Shown: positions 1-13,918, counted from the first letter of the stretch. The stretch is DNA of 13,918 bases from a virus (IMGVR_UViG_2695420480_000007); one strand, 5' to 3'. Notes: generated by a model from the letters alone, not told the origin. Translations and numbers: made by a program.

Positions 1-993
1 TTATGCTAGAGTTGAATATTCTCCATTTCCTCGGTCGGTGAGTGTTAATTCGCGGCCATTTTCTGTAAATGTAATGGCATCCAGCAGGCTTTTTCCTGTT
101 ACAGCTATACCATATCCAAGGTTATCAATCTTTGAACTGTCCTCAGATGATATTGGTATTTGTACAAGCATACCAACAACAAGGCCGTATTTGTTAATTA
201 TAGGGCCACCGCTATTCCCCCCCTTAACCCTAGCATTGAATAATAAAAAGTCTTGTGAATCTAAGTAAGAGTGACCAGAACCAACAATTCGCCCCTTTGA
301 CAGTCGGACAAACGAATTTATATGCGAAACGTCATATAACTTTAATGCATCAAATCCTGGAATGGGTGGAAATCCTATTGATAAAATTTCATCCAGTACC
401 GAGGCTTTGGTTGAGACCTTAAGTGGTTGAATATTATCTTCATTCGGAATGGTTGTGAAAACTAAAGCGATATCAATACGTTCATCGTTAGATACAAAGA
501 TTTTATGTATTGGTAAAGCCTCACCACCAGCTCTAAGTATCCTGATACTCTTCATGTCTTCAATAACATGTCTGGCTGTAAATATCGTGTGGTTATTCCC
601 AACAATAAAACTAGTACCAAGATCATGTGAACCATCACTTTTTTCAACAACAACAGGTAAAACGGAAGGACTAAGGCGGTCTATGATTGACTCAAATCCA
701 TCAGCTATAAAATCATACTTTCCATATTTCGCATCTGATTCATTGAAATTCGGTGCGAAATAGCAACGGTCAAAAAGAGTATGTCCTGAAGACAATTCCA
801 TTAAAATACCTTCAGTTGCTAGCTTTTCACAATTGCGTATTAACTTCATCATATCGAGAGTATTTTCCCACTCAGGTTTGAGACGGGTCAGGCTCTCAAT
901 TGTTTTTCTCTCTTTTACGTTATCGTTTTCCGGTTTGTCATAAAAATATTTCACTATTTCTGTTGGTGTTACATATGTTTTTTTTATAGTCAT
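1..993 (-). CDS. Trypsin-like (S1/chymotrypsin-fold) serine protease with an N-terminal domain of about 115 aa of unknown function
   Basis: Track ORF 1..1047(-) starts at a GTG with no SD; first in-frame ATG is at 993 (MTIKK...) with a weak GGG 7 nt upstream, so 993 is preferred and 1047 is the alternative. Ordered motifs TARHV (His), DIALV (Asp), GNSGGP (Ser) fit an S1 catalytic triad. Stop TAA at 1-3, so the gene is complete in the window. AT-rich. Confidence 0.7.
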   Translation of the reverse strand: MTIKKTYVTPTEIVKYFYDKPENDNVKERKTIESLTRLKPEWENTLDMMKLIRNCEKLATEGILMELSSGHTLFDRCYFAPNFNESDAKYGKYDFIADGFESIIDRLSPSVLPVVVEKSDGSHDLGTSFIVGNNHTIFTARHVIEDMKSIRILRAGGEALPIHKIFVSNDERIDIALVFTTIPNEDNIQPLKVSTKASVLDEILSIGFPPIPGFDALKLYDVSHINSFVRLSKGRIVGSGHSYLDSQDFLLFNARVKGGNSGGPIINKYGLVVGMLVQIPISSEDSSKIDNLGYGIAVTGKSLLDAITFTENGRELTLTDRGNGEYSTLA

Positions 994-1410
994 TTTTGTA
1001 CCCGCGATGACGTTATTCCATATATTTTTCTTTGTAGAAAATATCACTATTGCTGGTAAATGTTAAGTTCAGTGCTCGCACTAAAGCTGGATGATCAACG
1101 TCGCCCTCGTATGGAAATCAGGTAAGATTCATGTCTACTTGGGGTCTAGGGTAGACAGCATAAAAACGTACAATAGCGTTCGATTGGCTCTCACCCCCGC
1201 CTATAAACCATGAGGTTGATAGGGTAGTATCGTTAGGCAATAGTATACATGTAAGTATCCAACCTAATTGGTCTTGAGATTTCTAACTAACGTGTCGTTA
1301 TGTCCGCTTTTGGCACATAGCAGCCCCAGAGACAGTGGTGTAAAGTCATGGAGGGTCGGTGGGAGGATATTCAGTTTCATTCATGCCGAAATACGGTAAA
1401 ATCTATAATA

Positions 1411-1514
1411 GATGGAAATCATTCAATACTCGCACTATCGAAAGTCCACCATCCAGCCGCAGCAAGTTCTTGCATACGACGTGTCAGCGGGTTCAACTCC
1501 CGCCAGCTCCACCA
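1411..1514 (+). repeat. Copy 1 of a paralogous non-coding element of about 80 nt; its last 28 nt (1487..1514) match the tmRNA (ssrA) 3' end including a GGTTCAANTCC T-loop and CCA
   Basis: Ungapped alignment of 1411..1490 against 4081..4160 gives 68/80 identities. 1487..1514 = gcgggttcaactcccgccagctccacca, which I recall as the 3' terminus of E. coli tmRNA (from memory, not searched). Confidence 0.5.
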
Positions 1515-1639
1515 ATCATGATTGGACGGTGTAAGGACAACACCAACAAAAACAGGATGTTAGCAGTCTCAGCAGGACACCGACCAGACGGTGAGGAGAC
1601 AAAAAAGGATACGCAAAGGAGCCGCAGCTCCCGAGTGAT

Positions 1640-1669
1640 AAAAAAGCCCGCTTATGCGGGCTTTTTTTT
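1640..1669. terminator. Bidirectional intrinsic terminator
   Basis: aaaaaa-GCCCGC-ttat-GCGGGC-tttttttt: 6-bp GC stem, 4-nt loop, A-run 5' and T-run 3', so it reads as a terminator on both strands. It lies 10 bp past the Bro-N stop on the minus strand. Confidence 0.65.
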
Positions 1670-1678
1670 CCCTCAAGC

Positions 1679-2440
1679 TCACTGACGTGTTCTTGCCTCA
1701 ACTACTTTCTGGTATATAGCGATAGCTTCATCAACCAAAGCTAATGGATAGCAAGAATTTATATTCAATCCGGAGGGGCACTTAATTCTTTCTGCTCCAC
1801 GTTCACTACGCAATTTTTCACACCATTGCCAAAGCTCCTCAACCGAATAGGTATCCAAACCTAACTCCATCAATCGTTGAGGAACACTTCTGAACTGAGA
1901 CAAATCTCTTAAACTTTCTAACGAGTTAACTTTTAGTTCAACTTGGTTTACTCTACTTTCTAACTCTTCACGTTTTTCTATTTCCATTACCAATGCTTGA
2001 ACCGTCTGCTGCAGACTGTTAGCAAAAGCACTCAGTTCTGAACGTTCTTGCTTAGGTGGCGGAGGATATACACCAAATTCACGAATAGACGGAAGGACCT
2101 GATGAAAAAGCCAGCGTTGGAATTTTTTCCCCGCAGCAGTAGTATCCTGAGCAAGTACTCTATATAGACCTGGTTCAGTAAGAAATACCTCAGAGATAGT
2201 TTCACCATCCACGACAAGAGAAACATTCCTAAACTCATCTGGATCTAAAGTTTTTATTACCGCTCTTATTACAGTGAGCAAGCTTTGAGAAGTCTTTCCA
2301 TCCAGTTTTCTGTTCTCAGCAGAAAGCGTTCTTAGCACATCTGAAAGTGAAACAAAAATCTGCCCTTTTTCATTCATGCTACGGATATAATTTTCTCCAC
2401 ACTCTCCTTCGTAGCATAATTGTAACAAATTCTTTTGCAC
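1679..2440 (-). CDS. Bro-N domain protein (phage antirepressor-like) with coiled-coil middle and C-terminal domain
   Basis: 253-aa ORF. N-terminal region (…IFVSLSDVLRTL…EPGLYRVLAQDTTAAGKKFQRWLFHQVLPSIREFG) has the Bro-N pattern. GTG start at 2440 preceded by AAGGAGGGG with 7-nt spacing; the nearby ATG is out of frame. Confidence 0.65.
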   Translation of the reverse strand: MQKNLLQLCYEGECGENYIRSMNEKGQIFVSLSDVLRTLSAENRKLDGKTSQSLLTVIRAVIKTLDPDEFRNVSLVVDGETISEVFLTEPGLYRVLAQDTTAAGKKFQRWLFHQVLPSIREFGVYPPPPKQERSELSAFANSLQQTVQALVMEIEKREELESRVNQVELKVNSLESLRDLSQFRSVPQRLMELGLDTYSVEELWQWCEKLRSERGAERIKCPSGLNINSCYPLALVDEAIAIYQKVVEARTRQ

Positions 2441-2463
2441 GCCATCCCCTCCTTTTTTTATGG

Positions 2464-2491
2464 ATTATACATCCTATAAACATGTTGTCAC
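2464..2491 (-). promoter_or_regulatory. Putative sigma70 promoter for the Bro-N gene
   Basis: On the minus strand: -35 GTGACA (plus 2486..2491), 16-nt spacer, -10 TATAAT (plus 2464..2469), followed by the SD and GTG start. Confidence 0.4.
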
Positions 2492-2718
2492 CGAAAGGGA
2501 AAAGCATAAACCCAATTTATGTTCCACAAGATGTTCAAAAATCAAACAACCATATAGCTGAGGAGCACAAAAGAGCAAAAGTTTACCAACCCCATATATC
2601 CATACAGCACATAAAATTGACACTACATATGGTATTTTTTAAGTTACGCCTTGCACCATTTCATGATTTTATGTAGATTGTCATCACACGCTGAGATTAA
2701 AAAATTCTACAATTTTTG

Positions 2719-2747
2719 TTGATCTTGAGTTTGGTTTTTAGTATAAG
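2719..2747 (+). promoter_or_regulatory. Putative sigma70 promoter for the XRE/ImmA operon
   Basis: -35 TTGATC (2719..2724), 17-nt spacer, -10 TATAAG (2742..2747), then SD AGGAGG (2762..2767) and ATG at 2774. Confidence 0.45.
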
Positions 2748-2773
2748 TGAGCATGGATTGTAGGAGGCGCAAC

Positions 2774-3124
2774 ATGGTAACTAGCTTTGGTAAGACTCTC
2801 AGAAAAATGAGAATAGACCGGGGTATGGTGCTCAAAAATATGGCTGATCTGTTAGGCGTTAGTTCGGCTTACTTATCCGCCATTGAATTAGGCAAAAGAG
2901 CTATACCGGACTCATTAGTAAATACGATTGCAACAACTTTTGAGCTTAGCGGACAAGACATCATCAATCTCAAGAAACAGGCAGAGATTTCTCAACCGTC
3001 CATTAAGGTTGATATGTCGGATGCAAATGAGCAGAACAAAGAACTAATGCTTGTTTTTGCTCGTAAATTTAAGGACCTGAGTCCAGAGCAACTCGATAAG
3101 CTTAATAAAATGTTAAAGGACTGA
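2774..3124 (+). CDS. XRE-family (Cro/CI-type) helix-turn-helix transcriptional regulator
   Basis: Track ORF 2747..3124; the likely start is ATG 2774, 6 nt after a perfect AGGAGG. HTH signature FGKTLRKMRIDRGMVLKNMADLLGVSSAYLSAIELGKR. Confidence 0.8.
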   Translation: MVTSFGKTLRKMRIDRGMVLKNMADLLGVSSAYLSAIELGKRAIPDSLVNTIATTFELSGQDIINLKKQAEISQPSIKVDMSDANEQNKELMLVFARKFKDLSPEQLDKLNKMLKD

Positions 3125-3127
3125 ATA

Positions 3128-3661
3128 ATGATTGCGAAACGAGAACTTGGCCATCGCGTTTCACCTCTCAGCACCAGCATGATTAAATCATACGCTCATC
3201 GTCTGAGAGACGTTCTTCAGATATCAAATCACACATATCTGAGACTGGATGTATTACTAGAAGGTCTTATGGCCTCAGAAAGCATTGAGCTAGAAATTGT
3301 TGAAGATCATGAACTGCCCAAACGCTATGCAGTGACTTATCCAGATAAGAACAAAATTGTTTTACAGCGATCTGTTTACGATGCAGTGTGCAATGGTGAG
3401 AACCATGCGAGATTCACTGTTGCGCATGAACTTGGTCATTTAGTCATGCATCGCAATCAAAGTATCTATGCACGTAATAAGACTAGTGGAGGGCATAAAA
3501 TCTATGAAGACAGCGAATGGCAAGCAGATGTTTTTGCAAGCCACTTCTTAATTGACTCAAGACTAGTTTTGCCCACAATGACTGTTGAAGATATAAGCAA
3601 AACATTTGGTGTCAGTCAACAAGCGGCTGAAACTTGGATGAGAAAAAATGCAAAAAGATAA
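3128..3661 (+). CDS. ImmA/IrrE-family (COG2856-like) zinc metallopeptidase
   Basis: 177-aa ORF starting 4 nt after the XRE stop (operonic). HEXXH motif in FTVAHELGHLVMH with downstream SEWQADVFASHFL, typical of ImmA/IrrE anti-repressor proteases. Confidence 0.8.
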   Translation: MIAKRELGHRVSPLSTSMIKSYAHRLRDVLQISNHTYLRLDVLLEGLMASESIELEIVEDHELPKRYAVTYPDKNKIVLQRSVYDAVCNGENHARFTVAHELGHLVMHRNQSIYARNKTSGGHKIYEDSEWQADVFASHFLIDSRLVLPTMTVEDISKTFGVSQQAAETWMRKNAKR

Positions 3662-3970: not shown

Positions 3971-4079
3971 CACTTCTGTTACGCGCACCACAGATAGAGT
4001 TTCAGCTAAAACTTTTGTTCATACCTAGGAGTCTGCTGACGAGTGGTTTGTTCACTAATAAACACGTAAAAACGGTAAC

Positions 4080-4165
4080 GGCTGGACATCATTCAATATT
4101 CGCACTATTGGAAGTTCACCAGCCAGCCACAGCACGTTCTTGCATACAACGTGCCTGCGGTTTTT
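4080..4165 (+). repeat. Copy 2 of the paralogous element of about 80 nt
   Basis: 85% ungapped identity to 1411..1490. Flanking stem GGCTGG (4080..4085) / CCAGCC (4119..4124) corresponds to GATGG/CCATC in copy 1, which is one compensatory A-T to C-G change. Confidence 0.5.
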
Positions 4166-4255
4166 GAGACCGGTCCGATCATCAAACGAAACATAAAATT
4201 AGCTCACACTATGAGGAAAAGTATCTTTTTTTACTATGTAAATTCAAAGGATTAG

Positions 4256-5125
<870 letters not shown>

Positions 5126-5147
5126 GTCTTTAAGTGATAAGCATAAA

Positions 5148-5186
5148 CCGCAGCACGATCTTCTTGCATACGACGTGCTACGGTTT
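5148..5186 (+). repeat. Copy 3 (shortened) of the paralogous element, between the GIY-YIG stop and the invertase stop
   Basis: ccgcagcacgatcttcttgcatacgacgtgctacggttt aligns with the core of copies 1 and 2. It contains a potential 6-bp stem AGCACG/CGTGCT. A mirrored copy lies at 8275..8313 inside the inverted duplication. Confidence 0.45.
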
Positions 5187-5740
5187 CATTTATCTCCGAC
5201 CGGAAACTTCTTATACAGTGTCGATATACCAACATCATAGATGATCGCCACCTTCTGGCGAGGAACGCCTGATGCAATTAATCGCCCGGCCTGCGCCCAT
5301 TGTTCTGGTGTAAGTTTGGGACGACGTCCCCCAATTCGTCCCTGTGCGCGAGCAGCTTCCAGTCCAGCTTTTGTTCGTTCAACAATCAGTTCTCGTTCCA
5401 TTTCAGCCAAGGCACCCATCACATGAAAGAAAAAACGCCCCATCGGTGTGCTGGTATCAATAGCATCCGTCAGGCTGCGAAAATTAACGCCACGTTCGCG
5501 CAACTCCTCAACCAGAATGACCAGATGCCGCATACTACGCCCCAGCCGATCCAGCTTCCAGACAACCAGAGTGTCACCTGCCGATAATGTCCTGAGCAGT
5601 TTTTTCAGTCCCGGCCTTTCGGACTTTGTACCGCTTATCTTGTCTTCAAAAATAAGCTCGCATCCTGCACAGTTCAGCGCATTACGTTGTAGATCTGTGT
5701 TCTGGTCATTTGTTGATACGCGTACATAGCCAATAAGCAT
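5186..5740 (-). CDS. Serine recombinase, DNA invertase of the Pin/Gin/Hin/Cin (Din) family, copy 1
   Basis: Track ORF 5186..5776; the likely start is the internal Met giving MLIGYVRVSTNDQ… (184 aa, the Din-invertase length), with catalytic-Ser region YVRVST and a C-terminal HTH. 100% identical to copy 2. Confidence 0.85.
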   Translation of the reverse strand: MLIGYVRVSTNDQNTDLQRNALNCAGCELIFEDKISGTKSERPGLKKLLRTLSAGDTLVVWKLDRLGRSMRHLVILVEELRERGVNFRSLTDAIDTSTPMGRFFFHVMGALAEMERELIVERTKAGLEAARAQGRIGGRRPKLTPEQWAQAGRLIASGVPRQKVAIIYDVGISTLYKKFPVGDK

Positions 5741-5794
5741 GGTAGATCCCCCTGACAAAAGCAGGAATGATGCCATTTGCTCGTTATTTCTGCA

Positions 5795-5820
5795 TTTTCA
5801 TAAATGTTGGTTTGGGAGAA
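5795..5820. other. 26-bp Din-invertase crossover site (hix/gix-like), site 1
   Basis: TTTTCATAAATG-TT-GGTTTGGGAGAA; the inner half-site is the reverse complement of TTCTCCCAAACC. Exact inverted copy of site 2; the duplication boundary falls at its central dinucleotide. Confidence 0.5.
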
Positions 5821-6288
5821 GGTTCGGCATTACCCGTTGGTGTGCCTGTTCCGTGGCCTTCCGCCACTCCGCCAACAGGCTGGCTGAAATGCAACGGCGC
5901 GGCTTTCTCTGCTGAAGAATACCCGGAACTGGCAAAGGCTTATCCAACAAATAAATTACCTGATTTACGCGGTGAGTTTATTCGTGGCTGGGATGACGGG
6001 CGCGGTATTGATGCAGGACGTGTTTTATTGAGTATTCAGGCCGGAATGCTGGAAAAGCACCGTCATCCTGTTGTCGCCAACGATGGGTATGACTCAAAAG
6101 AGGAATGGGAACTGGCGACAATCTTCAGAAGAGCATATACGCAAGGCAGGGGGCTTGATGCTGCCGCTGCCGGAGGGAGTCTGATCCCATCACCGACACT
6201 TCATTCACGAGGGAGTATCGGTAATACTGGCGGGAGTGAAACCCGTCCACGAAATATTGCATTTAACTTTATCGTGAGGGCTGCATAA
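5809..6288 (+). CDS. Silent tail-fibre C-terminal variable cassette (Sv'), start-less in the current orientation
   Basis: Track ORF 5767..6288; its first 18 aa are read-through across the crossover site. The cassette (…GWLKCNGAAFSAEEYPELAKAYP…LPDLRGEFIRGWDDGRGID…) resembles Mu/P1/e14-type fibre C-terminal domains. Its stop overlaps the tfa' start (TAATG). Confidence 0.6.
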   Translation, partial: GLGEGSALPVGVPVPWPSATPPTGWLKCNGAAFSAEEYPELAKAYPTNKLPDLRGEFIRGWDDGRGIDAGRVLLSIQAGMLEKHRHPVVANDGYDSKEEWELATIFRRAYTQGRGLDAAAAGGSLIPSPTLHSRGSIGNTGGSETRPRNIAFNFIVRAA

Positions 6289-6890
6289 TGGATAACGCCG
6301 TATTAAATAGCGAGCTTATTGCCACGAAGGCGGGGAATATTACCGTCTATAACTATGATGGTGAAACTCGGGAATATATGTCTACTTCAAATGAATATCT
6401 TGCCATTGGTGTCGGTATCCCTGCATATTCCTGTTTAGATGCCCCTGGCACACATAAGGCGGGTTATGCTATCTGCCGTTCGATTGATTTAAACTCATGG
6501 GAATATGTGCCAGACCATCGCGGTGAAATCGTCTATAACACCGAAACGAGAGACGCCAAAGAAATCACAGCTCCGGGTGATTATCCTGAAAATACAACCA
6601 CTATCGCCCCGTTAACGCCATACGATAAATGGGATGGTAAGAAATGGGTGACCGATACTGAGGCACAGCATAGCGCCGCAGTAGAAGCGGCAGAAGCACA
6701 GCGCCAGTTGCTGATTGATGCTGCTATGGCTTCCATCAGTCTGATTCAGCTGAAATTGCAGGCCGGGCGGAAGCTGACGCAGGCAGAAATCACCCGCCTT
6801 AACGCTGTACTGGATTACATTGACGCGGTGACGGCAACAAATACCAGCACAGCGCCGGATGTCATCTGGCCTGAATTGCCGGAGGCGTAG
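6288..6890 (+). CDS. Tail fibre assembly protein (Tfa', 200 aa; U'-like)
   Basis: 200-aa ORF translationally coupled to Sv'; Tfa-like composition and C-terminus. Converges on and overlaps the opposite-strand tfa by 29 nt, as in Mu G and e14 P segments. Confidence 0.75.
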   Translation: MDNAVLNSELIATKAGNITVYNYDGETREYMSTSNEYLAIGVGIPAYSCLDAPGTHKAGYAICRSIDLNSWEYVPDHRGEIVYNTETRDAKEITAPGDYPENTTTIAPLTPYDKWDGKKWVTDTEAQHSAAVEAAEAQRQLLIDAAMASISLIQLKLQAGRKLTQAEITRLNAVLDYIDAVTATNTSTAPDVIWPELPEA

Positions 6891-7293
6891 GCCATTCAAT
6901 ATCTGGATCACTGGAGGTATCAATCAGTTCCAGTGCGTCCAGATAATCCAGCCACAGATTATATTGCGCCAGTTCCTCGCCTTTCAGACGACCAATAGCG
7001 GCTTTACCGGGCCATTGCTTACTGTTCATGTATTCGTTGGCCTGATTAACTAATCGCTGTTTATTTGATTCAGCGATTGTGATTAATTCTTCGCTGGTAA
7101 GTGGTGGCGCATCCTGCCATATTGGAAAACCATTTTTATCTGAACCAAGTATTTTACCATCAGGCCATGCAACTCCTGCGAACTCAGAATAAATAGTAAA
7201 GTTTATTTTCGTAGCGTTCTCAGGAATGGTTTGGCTATCTGGTGAAATATAAAACCCCGAATCAGAGGGATTAAAATAATATGTCTTTTCCAT
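6862..7293 (-). CDS. Tail fibre assembly protein (Tfa, 143 aa; U-like), copy A
   Basis: 143-aa ORF, identical to 8700..9131. ATG 2 nt after the stop of the upstream Sv cassette. Confidence 0.75.
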   Translation of the reverse strand: MEKTYYFNPSDSGFYISPDSQTIPENATKINFTIYSEFAGVAWPDGKILGSDKNGFPIWQDAPPLTSEELITIAESNKQRLVNQANEYMNSKQWPGKAAIGRLKGEELAQYNLWLDYLDALELIDTSSDPDIEWPTPPAIQAR

Positions 7294-7295
7294 AG

Positions 7296-7653
7296 TTAAT
7301 ACCCCACAGCCATCCAGTAAATTGAATTTGTTGTAGCAGAAGTGTAAGTAAATCTGATTTTAGTTCTGTTGGTACTTCCAATATCAAAGCCCACAGAACG
7401 GGCAGAAGGATCATTAGTTGAAATAAGAGCATTTACCGAACGACAAGCCGCAGGGAAAGCTACAGGTAATGTTATATCAACTGTTCCAACACTTCCTCCG
7501 GTTGGTGAGACAGAAAAACTCCCCCATTGAATAATCATCCCCCCAGGTAATTTCTGGTATCCATTGGCGGTCAATGAGTTACCAAAGCTGTTCATATCCG
7601 GTACCTGATTTTCTCCTGTCCCCACATTCCTTTTTGCTGCTTCTCCCAAACCA
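7296..7653 (-). CDS. Tail-fibre variable cassette Sv, duplicate copy not fused to a constant region (silent)
   Basis: Track ORF 7296..7694; identical to the C-terminal 118 aa of the stf gene at 9134..9781. Here the sequence upstream of the site is the invertase leader, not the fibre constant region. Confidence 0.6.
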
Positions 7654-7666
7654 ACATTTATGAAAA
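7641..7666. other. 26-bp Din-invertase crossover site, site 2
   Basis: TTCTCCCAAACC-AA-CATTTATGAAAA. The left half plus central AA (7641..7654) is identical to site 3 (9479..9492); the right half is identical to the outer half of site 1. Confidence 0.5.
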
Positions 7667-7720
7667 TGCAGAAATAACGAGCAAATGGCATCATTCCTGC
7701 TTTTGTCAGGGGGATCTACC

Positions 7721-8275
7721 ATGCTTATTGGCTATGTACGCGTATCAACAAATGACCAGAACACAGATCTACAACGTAATGCGCTGAACTGTGCAGGATG
7801 CGAGCTTATTTTTGAAGACAAGATAAGCGGTACAAAGTCCGAAAGGCCGGGACTGAAAAAACTGCTCAGGACATTATCGGCAGGTGACACTCTGGTTGTC
7901 TGGAAGCTGGATCGGCTGGGGCGTAGTATGCGGCATCTGGTCATTCTGGTTGAGGAGTTGCGCGAACGTGGCGTTAATTTTCGCAGCCTGACGGATGCTA
8001 TTGATACCAGCACACCGATGGGGCGTTTTTTCTTTCATGTGATGGGTGCCTTGGCTGAAATGGAACGAGAACTGATTGTTGAACGAACAAAAGCTGGACT
8101 GGAAGCTGCTCGCGCACAGGGACGAATTGGGGGACGTCGTCCCAAACTTACACCAGAACAATGGGCGCAGGCCGGGCGATTAATTGCATCAGGCGTTCCT
8201 CGCCAGAAGGTGGCGATCATCTATGATGTTGGTATATCGACACTGTATAAGAAGTTTCCGGTCGGAGATAAATGA
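7721..8275 (+). CDS. Serine recombinase, DNA invertase of the Pin/Gin/Hin/Cin family, copy 2
   Basis: Track ORF 7685..8275; ATG 7721 preceded by AGGGGG 8 nt upstream. Identical to copy 1 in inverted orientation. Confidence 0.85.
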   Translation: MLIGYVRVSTNDQNTDLQRNALNCAGCELIFEDKISGTKSERPGLKKLLRTLSAGDTLVVWKLDRLGRSMRHLVILVEELRERGVNFRSLTDAIDTSTPMGRFFFHVMGALAEMERELIVERTKAGLEAARAQGRIGGRRPKLTPEQWAQAGRLIASGVPRQKVAIIYDVGISTLYKKFPVGDK

Positions 8276-8313
8276 AACCGTAGCACGTCGTATGCAAGAA
8301 GATCGTGCTGCGG
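8275..8313 (-). repeat. Inverted copy of element copy 3
   Basis: Reverse complement of 5148..5186, lying within the 985-bp inverted duplication. Confidence 0.45.
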
Positions 8314-8335
8314 TTTATGCTTATCACTTAAAGAC

Positions 8336-8625
8336 TCAAAAATCAGGTGAGTAACGGACCGGGGACATAGCTCCTTTTTTTCTTAATTCATCTGGTATTT
8401 TTTTTCCAAGATAAAGATTTGCTATTTCAGGTGGGGCTTCTCGACCTTCAAAACCATAGCGAGAACTTTGTGTTGCCTCAAAGTCCGGATCCTCGTCCCA
8501 GTATTTCATCGTAGGGAAATTTTCACGTGTTGATTTGAGCCATTTATCAGCAATGAAAACCCCTCGAACGATCCCCCTTACAGTAGCAAGAATGACTTCT
8601 GCTTGGCTGGCGCGAGAGACATTAA
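8336..8625 (-). pseudogene. 3' fragment of the GIY-YIG gene (codons 180..274), inverted duplicate
   Basis: Reverse complement of 4836..5125, exact. Track ORF 8336..8761 is a chimera of this with antisense tfa sequence. Confidence 0.7.
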
Positions 8626-8728
8626 AATCACCCGCCTTAACGCTGTACTGGATTACATTGACGCGGTGACGGCAACAAATACCAGCACAGCGCCGGATGT
8701 CATCTGGCCTGAATTGCCGGAGGCGTAG
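8625..8728 (+). pseudogene. 3' fragment of tfa' (direct duplicate of 6787..6890)
   Basis: Identical to the end of the 200-aa tfa' gene but lacks its 5' 500 bp; begins at the non-site junction at 8625. Confidence 0.6.
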
Positions 8729-9131
8729 GCCATTCAATATCTGGATCACTGGAGGTATCAATCAGTTCCAGTGCGTCCAGATAATCCAGCCACAGATTAT
8801 ATTGCGCCAGTTCCTCGCCTTTCAGACGACCAATAGCGGCTTTACCGGGCCATTGCTTACTGTTCATGTATTCGTTGGCCTGATTAACTAATCGCTGTTT
8901 ATTTGATTCAGCGATTGTGATTAATTCTTCGCTGGTAAGTGGTGGCGCATCCTGCCATATTGGAAAACCATTTTTATCTGAACCAAGTATTTTACCATCA
9001 GGCCATGCAACTCCTGCGAACTCAGAATAAATAGTAAAGTTTATTTTCGTAGCGTTCTCAGGAATGGTTTGGCTATCTGGTGAAATATAAAACCCCGAAT
9101 CAGAGGGATTAAAATAATATGTCTTTTCCAT
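8700..9131 (-). CDS. Tail fibre assembly protein (Tfa, 143 aa), copy B, cognate to the expressed fibre
   Basis: Identical to 6862..7293; directly downstream of the stf gene. Confidence 0.8.
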
Positions 9132-9133
9132 AG

Positions 9134-9781
9134 TTAATACCCCACAGCCATCCAGTAAATTGAATTTGTTGTAGCAGAAGTGTAAGTAAATCTGATTTTA
9201 GTTCTGTTGGTACTTCCAATATCAAAGCCCACAGAACGGGCAGAAGGATCATTAGTTGAAATAAGAGCATTTACCGAACGACAAGCCGCAGGGAAAGCTA
9301 CAGGTAATGTTATATCAACTGTTCCAACACTTCCTCCGGTTGGTGAGACAGAAAAACTCCCCCATTGAATAATCATCCCCCCAGGTAATTTCTGGTATCC
9401 ATTGGCGGTCAATGAGTTACCAAAGCTGTTCATATCCGGTACCTGATTTTCTCCTGTCCCCACATTCCTTTTTGCTGCTTCTCCCAAACCAAGGTTTTCG
9501 AGAGCCGTTTTCACCGTGCCATCCGATTTGATATCGCCAAACGGATTCTTGCGGCTTAACAGCAGCGCGCGAAGTGCGGTAAGTAACTGGTCGTGCCGCC
9601 CCTTCTCCAGGCTGGCACCGGATGCCTCCACCACACTGCAAAGTTCCTCCTGCAACATGTCAAAGTAGTCATCATCCAGATCGGTGGCAGGCGTGCCGGT
9701 CTGGGGGTTACCACGGGTAAAACCGTTCTTACCCGCGCCGAACTTATCCTTCTGCGCGGTTTTCGTGTCTATACGATGCAT
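9134..9781 (-). CDS. Side tail fibre protein (about 97-aa constant N-terminal region fused to the Sv variable region), 215 aa
   Basis: ATG at 9781 with GGAG 7 nt upstream. N-terminus [21 protein letters not shown]… looks like a short e14/Mu-type fibre constant part; the constant/variable junction (…ENLGLGE|AAKRN…) coincides with crossover site 3. Confidence 0.75.
9479..9504. other. 26-bp Din-invertase crossover site inside the stf gene (best palindrome), site 3
   Basis: TTCTCCCAAACC-AA-GGTTTTCGAGAG, close to hixL as I recall it (TTCTTGAAAACC-AA-GGTTTTTGATAA, from memory). Sits at the fibre constant/variable boundary. Confidence 0.6.
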
Positions 9782-9784
9782 GGA

Positions 9785-9916
9785 TTACTCCGGATAACCG
9801 GGGTTTTCACCCGGTGCCGACCGCGCACGGCGCATCACCAGCCGACGGGCATCACGCATATGACGCTGACCAATCGTGACAAACGCCCGCCGGACACGGG
9901 CGCGGTTAAAGCGCAT
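9785..9916 (-). CDS. Small Arg-rich hypothetical protein (43 aa), possible late-operon remnant
   Basis: ATG overlaps the end of the upstream reading frame; stop is 3 nt before the stf ATG. Not in the ORF track (short). Confidence 0.25.
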   Translation of the reverse strand: MRFNRARVRRAFVTIGQRHMRDARRLVMRRARSAPGENPGYPE

Positions 9917-9935
9917 CTCCGCGGGCTGCTGAAAA

Positions 9936-10235
9936 TCAACGTGCAAAAAGGAAGTCGCCATTGCTGCCTCCGTGACTCTGCGTAAATTCGCCCAGTTCCG
10001 TACACTCCAGCAGCAGAAAGCGCCGCGCCCCGTTCAGATCGCGCTGACGTTTCACCCGGTACACACTGTCACCGCAGACCACCTCATAATCAGCGGTGAT
10101 CCCCCGGCGGTAGCGAATGGTGATGTAATGGGTGATGGCGTCCCCGGTCTGCGCGGTTTCCTGCCAGGTGGTGGCACTGGTCTGGATAACCTTCGCCCAT
10201 GTCCGGAACGTAACCGGGTACCCTGGCGACGCGCC
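9936..10235 (-). pseudogene. 5'-truncated phage head-tail joining/adaptor-like gene fragment
   Basis: A frame with no start codon reads …VTFRTWAKVIQTSATTWQETAQTGDAITHYITIRYRRGITADYEVVCGDSVYRVKRQRDLNGARRFLLLECTELGEF…, resembling the head-tail joining family pattern. GC-rich (about 60%). Confidence 0.4.
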
Positions 10236-10453
10236 TTACGCGTTAACCAGCCTTCTGCTTCCAGCCGTGCGATAGCCGTTCTGACGGTACTCATCCCCGC
10301 GCCAATCTGACGGGCAATGGTTTCAATTGATGGCCAGCACACACCTTCGTCATTACTGAAATCAGCCAGGCGGGCCATAATTGCCACGCTGGATAATTTC
10401 ATGCCTGACGCTGCGCAACCATCCCATACATAGCCGGTTAATTTAGTGCTCAT
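10052..10453 (-). pseudogene. Chimeric ORF: authentic N-terminal HTH domain (about 77 aa) of a phage replication/regulatory protein, then out-of-frame read-through
   Basis: [13 protein letters not shown]…SIETIARQIGAGMSTVRTAIARLEAEGWLTRKARRQG is a clean winged-HTH N-terminus. After RQG (about 10220..10228) the frame reads low-complexity Pro/Arg/Gly text while another frame carries the head-tail joining fragment. Confidence 0.5.
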
Positions 10454-10664
10454 GACCGACCTCTATTTCCCTGAATTTACGACGAAACTGTTCGAGCGGG
10501 CTGAAGCACTCATGCTCATAGCCTTCACGGAGGTAGATAACCCGTTGTGTTTCCGGCTCCCAACGAATGACTCTGACGGGCACTCCGTAGTGATCTTTGA
10601 ACCAGCGATTAACTTGTCGCAAAGGACTGTCTCCTTCTGCCGGTTGAAATCCCCCACAGCCCAC
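10443..10664 (-). CDS. Small hypothetical protein (73 aa)
   Basis: GTG start; its stop overlaps the start of the downstream HTH gene by 11 nt (operonic). No domain recognised with confidence. Confidence 0.4.
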
Positions 10665-10764
10665 TCTGCAAAGCTGTGGGTTACAATTTCCCTGTCGGGG
10701 ACCTTGAAAACGTCAATATCACTCACTGGGCAGTAATGCCAAAAGCACCGGAGGCTGGAGCATA

Positions 10765-11070
10765 ATGACCACTTTTACCGACAAAGAACTGATTAAAGAA
10801 ATTAAAGAGCGTATCAGCAGCCTTGACGTGCGAGACGATATTGAGCGCCGTGCTTATGAAATCGCACTCCTATCTCTGGAAGTAGAACCAGATGAACGCG
10901 AAGCTTATGAATTATTCATGGAAAAGCGTTTTGGTGACTTAGTAGATCGTCGGAGAGCAAAAAACGGCGATAACGAATACATGGCATGGGATATGACTCT
11001 CGGTTGGATCGTCTGGCAGCAACGAGCTGGTATCCATTTCTCAACAATGTCACAGCAAGAGGTGAAATAA
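10765..11070 (+). CDS. Hypothetical early-region protein (101 aa)
   Basis: ATG 10765 with GGAG 4 nt upstream; stop TAA shares its A with the xis ATG (TAATG), indicating translational coupling. Confidence 0.55.
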
Positions 11071-11420
11071 TGGAGCCATACAGCCTCACACTCGATGAGG
11101 CCTGTCATTTTCTCAAGATATCCAGACCGACTGCCATTAACTGGATACGCACAGGGCGTCTTCAGGCAACACGCAAAGATCCCACTAAGAATAAATCTCC
11201 TTACCTCACAACACGACAAGCCTGCATTGCGGCTCTTCAGTCTCCGCTGCATACTGTCCAGGTGAGCGCGGGTGATGGCATAACAGAGGAAAGAAAATGT
11301 CACTCTTCCGCAGAGGTGAAATATGGTACGCCAGTTTCACATTGCCGAACGGTAAAAGATTTAAACAGTCTCTTGGAACAAAGGACAAAAGGCAGGCGAC
11401 AGAACTCCATGACAAGCTAA
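11070..11420 (+). CDS. xis: Excisionase (Xis), P22-like, 116 aa
   Basis: Internal start of track ORF 10986..11420; ATG 11070 preceded by GAGGTG. DNA-binding motif [26 protein letters not shown]. Overlaps int by 124 nt in another frame. Confidence 0.65.
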
Positions 11421-12460
11421 AGGCTGAAGCATGGCGGGTCAGCAAACTTGGTGAAATACCTGATATAACGTTCGAGGAAGCGTGTGTCAGGTGGCTTGAA
11501 GAGAAAGCACATAAAAAATCACTGGACGATGACAAAAGCCGGATCGGATTCTGGCTTCAACATTTCGCAGGAATGCAACTAAGAGACATTACTGAATCAA
11601 AAATTTATTCAGCAATGCAGAAAATGACGAACCGGCGTCATGAGGAAAACTGGAAACTCAGGGCAGAAGCATGCAGAAAAAAAGGGAAACCTGTTCCAGA
11701 ATACACGCCAAAACCAGCGTCCGTTGCAACGAAGGCTACGCATCTTTCATTTATAAAGGCCCTACTAAGAGCCGCAGAGCGTGAATGGAAAATGCTGGAT
11801 AAGGCACCAATTATTAAAGTGCCTCAACCAAAGAATAAACGGATCCGCTGGCTGGAGCCCCATGAAGCACAAAGGCTGATTGATGAATGTCCGGAGCCAT
11901 TAAAGTCTGTTGTTGAATTTGCACTGGCAACAGGCTTAAGACGCTCGAACATCATCAACCTTGAATGGCAACAAATAGATATGCAGCGCCGGGTGGCATG
12001 GATAAACCCGGAAGAGAGTAAATCAAACCGCGCAATTGGCGTTGCGCTGAATGATACTGCATGTCGCGTATTGAAAAAACAAATCGGGAATCATCACCGT
12101 TGGGTATTTGTGTACAAGGAAAGCTGTACCAAACCAGACGGAACGAAAGCGCCAACAGTAAGGAAGATGCGGTATGACGCAAACACAGCCTGGAAAGCGG
12201 CGCTGAGACGGGCTGGTATTGATGATTTCAGATTTCACGACTTGAGACACACCTGGGCAAGTTGGCTGGTTCAAGCCGGAGTCCCGTTGTCAGTGTTACA
12301 GGAAATGGGAGGCTGGGAGTCTATCGAAATGGTTCGTCGATATGCTCACCTTGCACCTAATCACCTTACCGAACACGCACGGCAAATAGACTCGATCCTG
12401 AACCCATCGGTCCCAAATTTGTCCCAGTCAAAAAATAAGGAAGGTACTAATGATGTGTAA
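11297..12460 (+). CDS. int: Tyrosine site-specific integrase, P22/thrW-targeting family
   Basis: 387-aa ORF with SD GAGGA. N-terminus [47 protein letters not shown] matches my recollection of P22 Int; C-terminal catalytic region has R…HDLRHT…Y. Ends 14 bp from the thrW 3' end. Confidence 0.9.
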
Positions 12461-12474
12461 CTTATTGATTTAAA

Positions 12475-12550
12475 TGGTGCCGATAATAGGAGTCGAACCT
12501 ACGACCTTCGCATTACGAATGCGCTGCTCTACCAACTGAGCTATATCGGC
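12475..12550 (-). tRNA. thrW: tRNA-Thr (anticodon CGU)
   Basis: Reverse complement gives a 76-nt tRNA: GCCGATATAGCTCAGTTGGTAGAGCAGCGCATTCGTAATGCG…GGTTCGACTCC…CACCA, with anticodon loop tTCGTaa, T-loop and encoded CCA. Adjacent to proA as in E. coli/Salmonella. Confidence 0.9.
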
Positions 12551-12664
12551 CCTGAAAGGACATGTTCACGAACGTGAATCACGGTGGACAAGGTTAAAAC
12601 TAACCGGGCGATGCGTCAATGGCCTTGTGAATCAAATGGCTACTTTTGCATCACCCGGTTTTAT

Positions 12665-13918
12665 TTACGCACGAATGGTGTAATCACCAATGCCGATCCA
12701 CTTGTAAGTGGTCAGTGCTTCCAGCCCCATTGGGCCACGCGCGTGGAGTTTTTGTGTGCTTACCGCCACTTCCGCACCCAGACCAAACTGGCCGCCGTCG
12801 GTAAAACGCGTAGAGGCGTTAACGTAAACAGCGGACGAATCCACTTCGTTAACAAAACGCTGGGCGTTGCGCATATCGCGGGTCAGGATCGCATCGGAGT
12901 GTTGTGTGCCGTGTTCACGAATATGGGCGATGGCATCGTCAAGATCGCTGACGATTTTGACGTTCAAATCTAATGACAGAAACTCATCGTCATACTCTTC
13001 GGCTTTAACAGCAACCACCTTCGCAGGGCCTGCCTGCAACTGCGCCAGTGCAGCTGCATCTGCGTGTAATGTCACGCCGCTTTCCGCCATTTGTTTGCTT
13101 AATGCGGGCAGGAAGCTATCGGCGATGTTTTTATTCACCAGCAACGTTTCAACCGTATTACATGTGCTCGGACGCTGAGTTTTCGCGTTGACGATCACTT
13201 TTAATGCTTCAGCGATCTCTACACTTTCATCAACGTAAATATGGCATACGCCTATACCACCTGTGATCACCGGGATTGTCGACTGTTCACGGCACAGTTT
13301 ATGCAAACCAGCGCCACCACGCGGGATCAGCATGTCGATGTATTTATCCATACGCAGCATTTCACTGACCAGCGCACGGTCAGGATTATCAATCGCCTGC
13401 ACGGCACCCGCCGGTAAGCCGCAGGATTTCAGGGCGTCCTGAATCACCGCCACCGTTGCAGCGTTAGTGCGACACGTTTCTTTGCCACCGCGCAGGATCA
13501 CCGCATTACCGGTTTTCAGGCACAGCGAAGCGACATCAACCGTCACGTTCGGGCGCGCTTCATAAATCACGCCAATAACCCCCAGCGGTACGCGACGACG
13601 CTCAAGACGCAGGCCGCTGTCCAGTACGCCGCCATCGATTACCTGCCCCACCGGATCGGCGAGGTTGCACACCTGACGTACATCGTCGGCAATGCCTTTC
13701 AGCCGTGCGGGCGTCAGTGCCAGACGGTCAAGCATCGCTTCGCTAAGGCCATTGGCTCGCGCGTCAGCAACATCCTGGGCGTTAGCGTTGAGGATGATTT
13801 CGCTTTGTGCTTCCAGTTCATCGGCGATTTTTTCCAGCACGCGATTTTTTTCGCGGCTGGAGAGTTGCGCTAATTTATACGAGGCTTGCTTCGCGGCAAT
13901 GCCCATTTGTTCCAGCAT
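12665..13918 (-). CDS. proA: Gamma-glutamyl phosphate reductase (glutamate-5-semialdehyde dehydrogenase)
   Basis: 417-aa ORF matching E. coli ProA as I recall it ([21 protein letters not shown]…); the start codon is the last three bases of the window. Confidence 0.95.

Follow-up and report, generated by a model that had tools for sequence, protein, structure and literature searches.

How an integration module and a tail fibre module came to lie side by side with little of a phage between them, and why the fibres are still there, are the questions raised by a stretch of viral DNA of 13,918 nucleotides (IMGVR_UViG_2695420480_000007; one strand, 5' to 3'), referred to below in its entirety as the window. 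Toward its right end, an integrase and an excisionase (int and xis) adjoin the transfer RNA (tRNA) gene thrW, and about 1.3 kb to their left stands a module of tail fibre, fibre assembly and DNA invertase genes (stf, tfa and pin). The original prediction, made from the sequence alone, described a mosaic island in which P22-type int and xis had been coupled to an e14/Mu-type fibre–invertase module within an otherwise gutted prophage, and took the retention of that module as a sign of co-option. The gutted prophage is borne out by the analysis reported here and the mosaic is not: the island is probably the remnant of a single temperate myovirus of the SfV/e14 family residing in the 3' end of thrW, with fibre genes that have been retained passively and recently.

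Origin of the thrW island

The right-hand part of the window comprises the following features, given from the chromosomal flank toward the fibre gene.

12665-13918, minus strand: proA
12475-12550, minus strand: thrW, tRNA-Thr(CGU) (ARAGORN and Rfam)
12474-12520: attR core of 47 bp, the 3' 47 bp of thrW, with an identical 47-bp attL in the source contig
11297-12460, plus strand: integrase, tyrosine type, 387 aa, intact, of the SfV/P22 type (Pfam Phage_integrase)
11070-11420, plus strand: excisionase, 116 aa, intact (PHROG excisionase, E = 1e-50)
10765-11070, plus strand: orf28/yfdT-like open reading frame (ORF), 101 aa, intact, 100% aa identity to SfV orf28
10694-11070, plus strand: 3' end of an SfV orf29-like gene together with the orf28/yfdT-like ORF, SfV-like and contiguous with xis and int
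10694-10696: deletion junction J3, where the 5'-truncated ymfM/DUF4222 region meets the 3' end of orf29 (break points from BLAST with L003, SKA5, e14 and SfV)
10215-10696: 3' part of ymfM/DUF4222 and the first 78 O-like codons, 98% to e14 ymfM-oweE
10221-10693, minus strand: early-right remnant, 98.3% nucleotide identity to e14 ymfM-oweE and 97% to the O gene and upstream region of phage SKA5
10443-10622, minus strand: DUF4222 ORF, 59 aa, intact (Pfam)
10221-10453, minus strand: N-terminal stub of a replication O-like gene, 233 bp, 78 codons, HTH_36 (Pfam)
10214-10220: deletion junction J2, codon ~79 of the O gene joined to codon 5 of the head-closure gene
9793-10220, minus strand: head-closure/neck fragment, 428 bp (SfV orf7 and the 5' part of orf8), 97.9% to SfV 6026-6453 and 98.8% to L1PEag1
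9793-9796: deletion junction J1, with microhomology TATC, located 12-15 nt ahead of the stf start codon
9431-9796: 5' end of stf and 15 nt upstream of it, a colinear segment (BLAST)

Among phage genomes searched at the DNA level, SfIV, SfII, SfV and SfI matched the window at 97-99% in the fibre region as well as in that of int/xis. SfI, SfII, SfIV and SfV are myoviruses that integrate at thrW and carry accessory genes beside int-attP (PMC3851460). On the SfV map, the order is HK97-like head, Mu-like tail, short fibre, tfa, moron (gtr), attP, int and xis, and window positions 10694-12520 (orf29 3' end, orf28, xis, int and attP) correspond to SfV 22418-20592 at 99.3%. At the protein level, Int is 98.4% identical to SfV Int and 90.2% to Int of phage L (P22 type), and the respective values for Xis are 98.3% and 87%, which confirms the P22-type int/xis that had been predicted at thrW. 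A full-length counterpart is present in E. coli L1PEag1, where a complete prophage of 42.3 kb lies between the attL core and thrW; its cargo matches that of the window (peptidase, BRO, helix-turn-helix (HTH), ImmA and GIY-YIG genes), it also carries pinE, invertible fibres, xis and int, and it further holds Mu-type tail, head, lysis, Q, replication, immunity and yfdPQRT genes. Every segment retained in the window maps in order onto L1PEag1, SfV and SKA5. Only the 428-bp head-closure/neck fragment is left of the genes for an HK97-type head and a Mu-type contractile tail, and the island is therefore a remnant and not a functional prophage.

The combination of P22-type int/xis with Mu-type tail and fibre genes is present in SfV, SfII and SfIV as well as in L1PEag1, and the window is colinear with them; it is therefore a standard architecture, and the notion of a mosaic in which foreign modules have been coupled has to be abandoned. 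Recombination of a P22-like podovirus, as the source of int and xis, with an e14/Mu-like element, as the source of the fibres, is an explanation to which we attach almost no weight. The e14-like fibres and the identity of Int and Xis to the P22-type proteins (90% and 87%) speak for it, but the SfV versions of Int, Xis and orf28, which that phage already pairs with Mu-type tails, are 98-100% identical to those of the window, a full-length colinear prophage is known at thrW (L1PEag1), and the fragments between the two modules stand in prophage order.

Under the single-prophage explanation, integration into the 3' end of thrW by the P22-type integrase would have given rise to a prophage in the order thrW(attR), int, xis, early, immunity, replication, Q/lysis, head, Mu-like tail, stf/tfa with the Pin switch, moron genes and attL. 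Three deletions at microhomologies would have brought its two native ends to 1.3 kb from each other, leaving the att cores with int/xis, a Pin switch that swaps the C-terminal half of the fibre together with its chaperone, and the accessory end.

The gap between the starts of stf and xis, which measures 1,288 bp, was dissected by BLAST against L1PEag1, SfV, phage SKA5, e14 and other thrW elements, and deletion sizes were measured against L1PEag1. At J1, 10.8 kb of tail and baseplate genes have been lost; J2 accounts for ~14 kb (the rest of the replication genes, nin, Q, lysis, terminase, portal and capsid) and J3 for ~5 kb of immunity and early-left genes. Microhomology of 2-4 nt is present at every junction, and the three deletions total ~31 of 42 kb, with stf, tfa and pin kept. 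The 133-aa "gene" called at 10052-10453 is the J2 chimera. The ~1.3 kb of pseudogenes that had been proposed to separate the modules is thus correct in size, but not all of it is pseudogene, given the intact DUF4222 and orf28/yfdT-like ORFs inside the gap. None of the junctions J1-J3 was found in 5,426 complete E. coli genomes; they are shared only by about a dozen near-identical samples, the flanks of which differ by at most one base in >15 kb. It follows that the decay took place recently and is confined to a clone, and that the intact ORFs are uninformative with regard to selection.

Examination of the left side leads to the same description of the element. The source contig (CXZE01000004.1, assembly GCA_001277415.1), to which exact-protein look-up of the J2 chimera and of the GIY-YIG allele led, is identical to the window save for one base, at position 8625, and carries attL, the 47-bp repeat of the thrW 3' end, 648 bp to the left of window position 1. 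We looked past the left edge for the continuation of an intact prophage; beyond attL, the contig has instead a yagP fragment followed by the chromosomal yagQRST and no further prophage, so that no prophage continues leftward and the description as a gutted prophage stands. In a clean sister assembly, the island measures 11,329 bp from core to core. The tRNA was the sole match in an Rfam scan, and the 23-bp P22 attP core, as annotated in phage L, has an exact match inside thrW at 12491-12513. Because int, xis and both att cores are intact, excision should, to judge from the sequence, be possible in principle.

In many strains (L131 = FDAARGOS_1284, L138, L143 and L145; L001/L141), a second thrW-derived islet stands in tandem after the attL of this prophage type. 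It is either the vat autotransporter islet, which includes the remnant of an integrase, or a P4-like satellite that encodes an integrase itself, and thrW therefore carries arrays of elements. The strain of the window is without a tandem islet, and yagP' follows directly after attL.

Two of the break points recur in other sequences. The break in the O-like stub, after CGCCAGGGT(A) or GCGCGTCGCCAGGGT(A), was observed at window positions 10214-10221 and in L006 (8904), L003 (~25885), L009 (~9088), L062, L075 and L089. It has seven different downstream partners, and the decayed elements concerned are independent of one another and lie at thrW, icd and argW: the head-closure gene in the window, terminase in e14, the inside of rusA in the thrW element of strain LR-33, the stf ribosome-binding site in the argW element of strain G4/9, and those in three viral contigs. 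In 115 of the 124 sequences that contain the preceding 29-mer, the O-like gene continues intact. The other recurrent break, between TAT and CCGGAGTAATCCATG (TAT/CCGGAG) 12-15 nt upstream of the stf start, has three independent upstream partners (window 9793-9800; L009 ~9082; L244), and an imperfect TAnCCG motif is common to several of the partner sequences at the recurrent breaks. Together, these breaks look like a deletion hot spot, possibly tied to a replication origin or to template switching. Quasi-sites for Pin were considered as the cause and rejected, the break-point sequences being unlike the crossover-site consensus.

The Pin inversion switch and the second pin copy

The fibre module and the invertase are composed of the following features, which include a block of the window that, as explained below, is an artefact.

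9134-9781, minus strand: stf, short tail fibre, 215 aa, full length and not a fragment (Pfam Gp53-like_C; SfV orf21 = 216 aa)
9478-9504: crossover site at the boundary of the constant and variable fibre parts (Sc/Sv), CTTCTCCCAAACC-AA-GGTTTTCGAGAG, with a 16-bp core shared with the e14 P segment
8700-9131, minus strand: tfa, fibre assembly chaperone for Sv, 143 aa, intact (Pfam Caudo_TAP), the same gene as 6862-7293
7655-9492: artefactual block of 1,838 bp, in which 4836-5821 (second "pin" and CMoRE 3' end) recurs inverted and 6787-7654 recurs directly, the two meeting at 8625
7640-7666: crossover site, artefact copy
5822-7639: invertible segment of 1,818 bp, holding Sv', tfa', tfa and Sv
7296-7639, minus strand: Sv, in the segment
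6862-7293, minus strand: tfa, in the segment
6288-6890, plus strand: tfa', a chaperone of 200 aa, 88% identical to e14 TfaE
up to 6288, plus strand: Sv' (Collar domain), in the segment
5795-5821: pin-proximal crossover site, inverted relative to 9478-9504
5186-5740, minus strand: pin, serine DNA invertase, 184 aa (Pfam Resolvase and HTH_7)

Stf consists of a constant N-terminal part, Sc (~100 aa), followed by a gp53-like C-terminal part, Sv, and its N-terminal region is 98.8% identical at the nucleotide level to stfP of e14. Pin shares 95% aa identity with PinE of e14 (~92% between the pin and pinE DNA sequences) and matches Gin of phage Mu (PDB 3UJ3) over the full length (E = 1e-93), with the catalytic Ser9 present. 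With a serine recombinase and two inverted ~26-bp sites (core TTGGTTTGGGAGAAGG) that bound alternative fibre C-termini and their chaperones, the locus has the composition of a Din-family switch. The original prediction had called it an e14/Mu-G-like stf/tfa shufflon, and this designation is accurate for the stf/tfa genes with Pin but loose in the term shufflon, the locus being a two-site serine-invertase switch; a shufflon of the R64 type, with an Rci tyrosine recombinase and multiple sfx repeats, was rejected on account of the serine invertase and the presence of only two real sites.

The segment is in the opposite orientation in L156, L162, L133 and L134, and elements that are 100% identical apart from the flipped segment exist in both orientations. 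In Logan contigs from DRR567778 and DRR567785, Sc is joined to Sv', and two other contigs end exactly at the crossover site at 9478. Assembly GCA_019513185.1 carries one pin, the flipped segment and the same three deletion junctions, and is otherwise 100% identical; its flipped state comprises an Sc-Collar fibre of 256 aa and, beside pin, a 131-aa ORF in which a leader is fused to the gp53-like C domain (leader-gp53C). Given that both orientations occur in otherwise identical assemblies that bear the junctions, Pin still works, and it has inverted the segment since the deletions took place.

The window itself appears to contain two copies of pin. Self-comparison revealed a perfect inverted repeat of 986 bp (4836-5821 and 7640-8625) and a perfect direct repeat of 868 bp (6787-7654 and 8625-9492), which abut at 8625 without homology, and this base, the sole difference between the window and the public contig CXZE01000004.1, is an N in the latter. 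Because 8625 is a scaffold join and the identical sister assembly is single-copy, the second pin and the second copy of tfa/Sv are a scaffold artefact from a culture that held both orientations of the segment, and a chimeric 141-aa ORF at 8336-8761 belongs to the same artefact. The chimeric scaffold therefore implies that both orientations were present among the reads: the left contig would have been extended from the invertible segment into pin according to the alternative orientation, and the right one from the constant part of the fibre gene into the segment as it lies in the reference orientation. The real locus has one pin, two crossover sites and the 1,818-bp segment.

A real origin of the additional pin and tfa/Sv, by a 1,838-bp tandem duplication in the flipped state and subsequent Pin inversion between the outer sites, was modelled first, and its geometry fits, in that the two-step path yields the arrangement exactly and all three sites show the predicted half-site combinations. 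It was nevertheless rejected on the strength of the N at the junction base and of the single copy in GCA_019513185.1, and we regard it as very improbable: the flanking blocks are what extension from each contig end gives if the reads hold both orientations, and the join at 8625 was not found in the 5,426 complete E. coli genomes.

Persistence of the fibre module beside accessory genes

The accessory genes of the island lie between pin and attL, and all belong to the end of the element that the deletions have spared.

4352-5125, plus strand: PD-T4-3/CMoRE, GIY-YIG type IV restriction nuclease (PADLOC PD-T4-3, E = 2e-140, residues 1-256 of a 256-position model)
3128-3661, plus strand: ImmA/IrrE metallopeptidase, CapP-like (Pfam; PADLOC CapH/CapP-like hits)
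2774-3124, plus strand: HTH protein, CapH-like (Pfam; PADLOC CapH/CapP-like hits)
1679-2440, minus strand: BRO-N protein, Ant-like (Pfam)
1-993, minus strand: S1 (trypsin-like) peptidase (Pfam)

The gene next to pin, PD-T4-3/CMoRE, which also matches known structures (PDB 9U75, E = 2e-171; also 9U7U), has been characterized experimentally as a type IV restriction nuclease directed against phages with hydroxymethylcytosine (hmC) or glucosyl-hmC (PMC12923530). The most likely explanation for the persistence of the fibre genes is passive, recent retention beside such selectable cargo: we infer that they have been kept since the deletions are recent and since they sit between the deleted block and the defence genes, and that they have not been recruited for particle building. 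Against the reading of their retention as co-option stand the clone-limited junctions, the loss of the late promoter and Q, both of which fall inside the J2 deletion, and the damaged fibre modules of decayed relatives, namely LR-33 (IS1), 18AR0366 (frameshift) and G4/9 (truncated stfP). A scan of positions 4000-12600 for consensus promoters and terminators gave no excess over shuffled sequences and none that convincingly serves stf or the leader ORF. The stf/tfa/pin cassette is also carried by a great many intact prophages, which occupy several sites. What weighs against passive retention is that pin and the four ORFs for fibres and chaperones are all undamaged, that the inversion switch is active, and that a host-beneficial anti-phage role has been published for the homologous module of e14 (PMC12529663); retention may therefore not be purely passive.

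The published role is the basis of the alternative that we regard as unlikely, albeit less so than the others, in which the host keeps the Pin switch as an anti-phage device that the recombinase activates, in line with the report on e14, with CMoRE as a second layer. When the P segment of e14 is inverted, it is reported to give rise to StfE2, a protein of 125 aa in which a pin-proximal leader is fused to the gp53-like C domain and which blocks the adsorption of T2 (Kirigo et al. 2025; PMC12529663). By analogy, the leader-gp53C protein of the flipped state (131-132 aa) would coat or occlude an outer-membrane receptor and so block the adsorption of some phage. The corresponding ORF, a pin-proximal leader of 17 aa followed by the gp53-like C domain, encodes 132 aa at window positions 7296-7694 (minus strand), where in the real genome it would exist in the flipped state only, and 131 aa beside pin in L156 (11419-11814) and L162. 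The 16-bp repeats identical to those of e14, the 95% identity of Pin to PinE, the nearly identical leader, the presence of the flipped state with the StfE2-like ORF in sister isolates and the adjacent defence cargo (PD-T4-3/CMoRE) all argue for such a device. However, the gp53-like domain is only ~30% identical to that of K-12 and the whole protein 37% to StfE2, so that specificity is not transferable; the scan of 4000-12600 identified no promoter; intact prophages very often contain this cassette, simply as a host-range switch; the decayed allele is clone-limited, so nothing shows selection; and the e14 evidence is a single report that partly involves over-expression. A broader version, in which selection has kept the surviving end as a compact, excisable, phase-variable defence island (the StfE2-like blocker, CMoRE and a CapH/CapP-regulated protease) and the recurrent breaks (after ...CAGGGTA, and TAT/CCGGAG) at thrW, icd and argW mark a preferred, perhaps origin-linked route for the domestication of SfV-like prophages, appears rather improbable to us. 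As for use in particles, none of the genes of an R-type tailocin (sheath, tube, baseplate, tape-measure and lysis) was found in the island, which therefore cannot be a tailocin by itself, and the suggested tailocin role is unsupported. The module could act in trans and supply fibres to a tailocin or to a further SfV/e14-like prophage in the genome; stf, both tfa genes and pin are intact, and the constant N-terminal part of Stf, given the 98.8% nucleotide identity to e14 stfP, could dock on related Mu-type baseplates. We find this hardly credible, in view of the lack of sheath, tube, baseplate, tape-measure and lysis genes in the island, the deletion of the late promoter and Q, and the fibre cassettes that related intact prophages have of their own. 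The proposal that the module serves as a platform for adjacent cargo is half right, in that a validated defence nuclease adjoins pin.

Passive retention of the fibre end thus remains our preferred explanation, and the locus bears on other genome scans: two ends of a known phage type that are joined by deletion look like a "mosaic," flipping of a switch in the sequenced culture yields an apparent double invertase, and both patterns will recur. As a thrW analogue of e14 with an active Pin switch beside a validated defence gene, the island also offers a convenient second system for the anti-phage role recently claimed for Pin-inverted fibre fragments, and its analysis has brought to light recurrent deletion break points in SfV-like prophages.

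Several further observations concern the accessory end. The position next to pin is a variable defence slot in relatives, being occupied by McrA, EcoRII restriction-modification, SIR2 or protein kinase genes. The block at 1-3661 is very common and is found at the fibre-proximal end of SfV-like and lambda-like prophages alike; its S1 peptidase has a weak N-terminal match to ABC-3C CTD12 and PADLOC matches to the protease parts of RT-Protease and LmuA/HamA, whereas PADLOC gave no match for pin or the BRO-N protein. We regard the block as a candidate regulated defence cassette. Two direct copies of a ~80-bp sequence (1413-1490 and 4083-4160; 86% identity) bound the BRO/HTH/ImmA genes; related copies lie beside the cargo in strain Z1323PEC0011 (L002) and phage SKA5 (L004), and the sequence may mark a cassette boundary for cargo exchange. 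Directly downstream of the BRO-N gene, an imperfect palindrome of 42 nt (86%; 1633-1674) is probably a bidirectional terminator.

Relationship to known elements

The closest known element is the cryptic prophage e14 at icd of E. coli K-12, which is likewise a decayed SfV-like lambdoid myovirus. Both elements keep int/xis, the ymfM-O stub, the stf/tfa genes with an invertible P segment, and pin; both have a type IV restriction gene beside the invertase (mcrA beside pinE in e14); and the break in the O gene falls on one and the same nucleotide in the two. They differ in the integration site and integrase (icd with IntE in e14, thrW with a P22/SfV-type integrase here), in the deletion partners, in the cargo (McrA and Lit in e14, compared with PD-T4-3/CMoRE, the CapH/CapP-like pair and the protease here) and in the receptor-binding halves of the fibres, which diverge.

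Next after e14 are the CPS-53-like remnants and the Sf phages. The CPS-53/KpLE1-type remnant at argW in strain G4/9 resembles the present element in that its O stub is fused directly to the start of stf, with the same two breaks within 2 nt, but it has another integrase and site, no pin and a truncated fibre gene. SfV, SfII, SfIV, SfI and the thrW remnants share the att site, the gene order, a related N-terminus of the short fibre and the head-closure genes; the Sf phages have gtrABC in the moron position and lack a Pin switch, and the element described here has lost every morphogenesis gene. Among the Din invertases, the Mu G segment with Gin, Cin of P1 and Hin of Salmonella likewise combine a serine invertase and 26-bp inverted sites in a fibre gene with alternative C-termini and their own chaperones; unlike these, Pin of the thrW island belongs by sequence to the Pin/e14 branch and lies in a defective element that would be devoid of late transcription.

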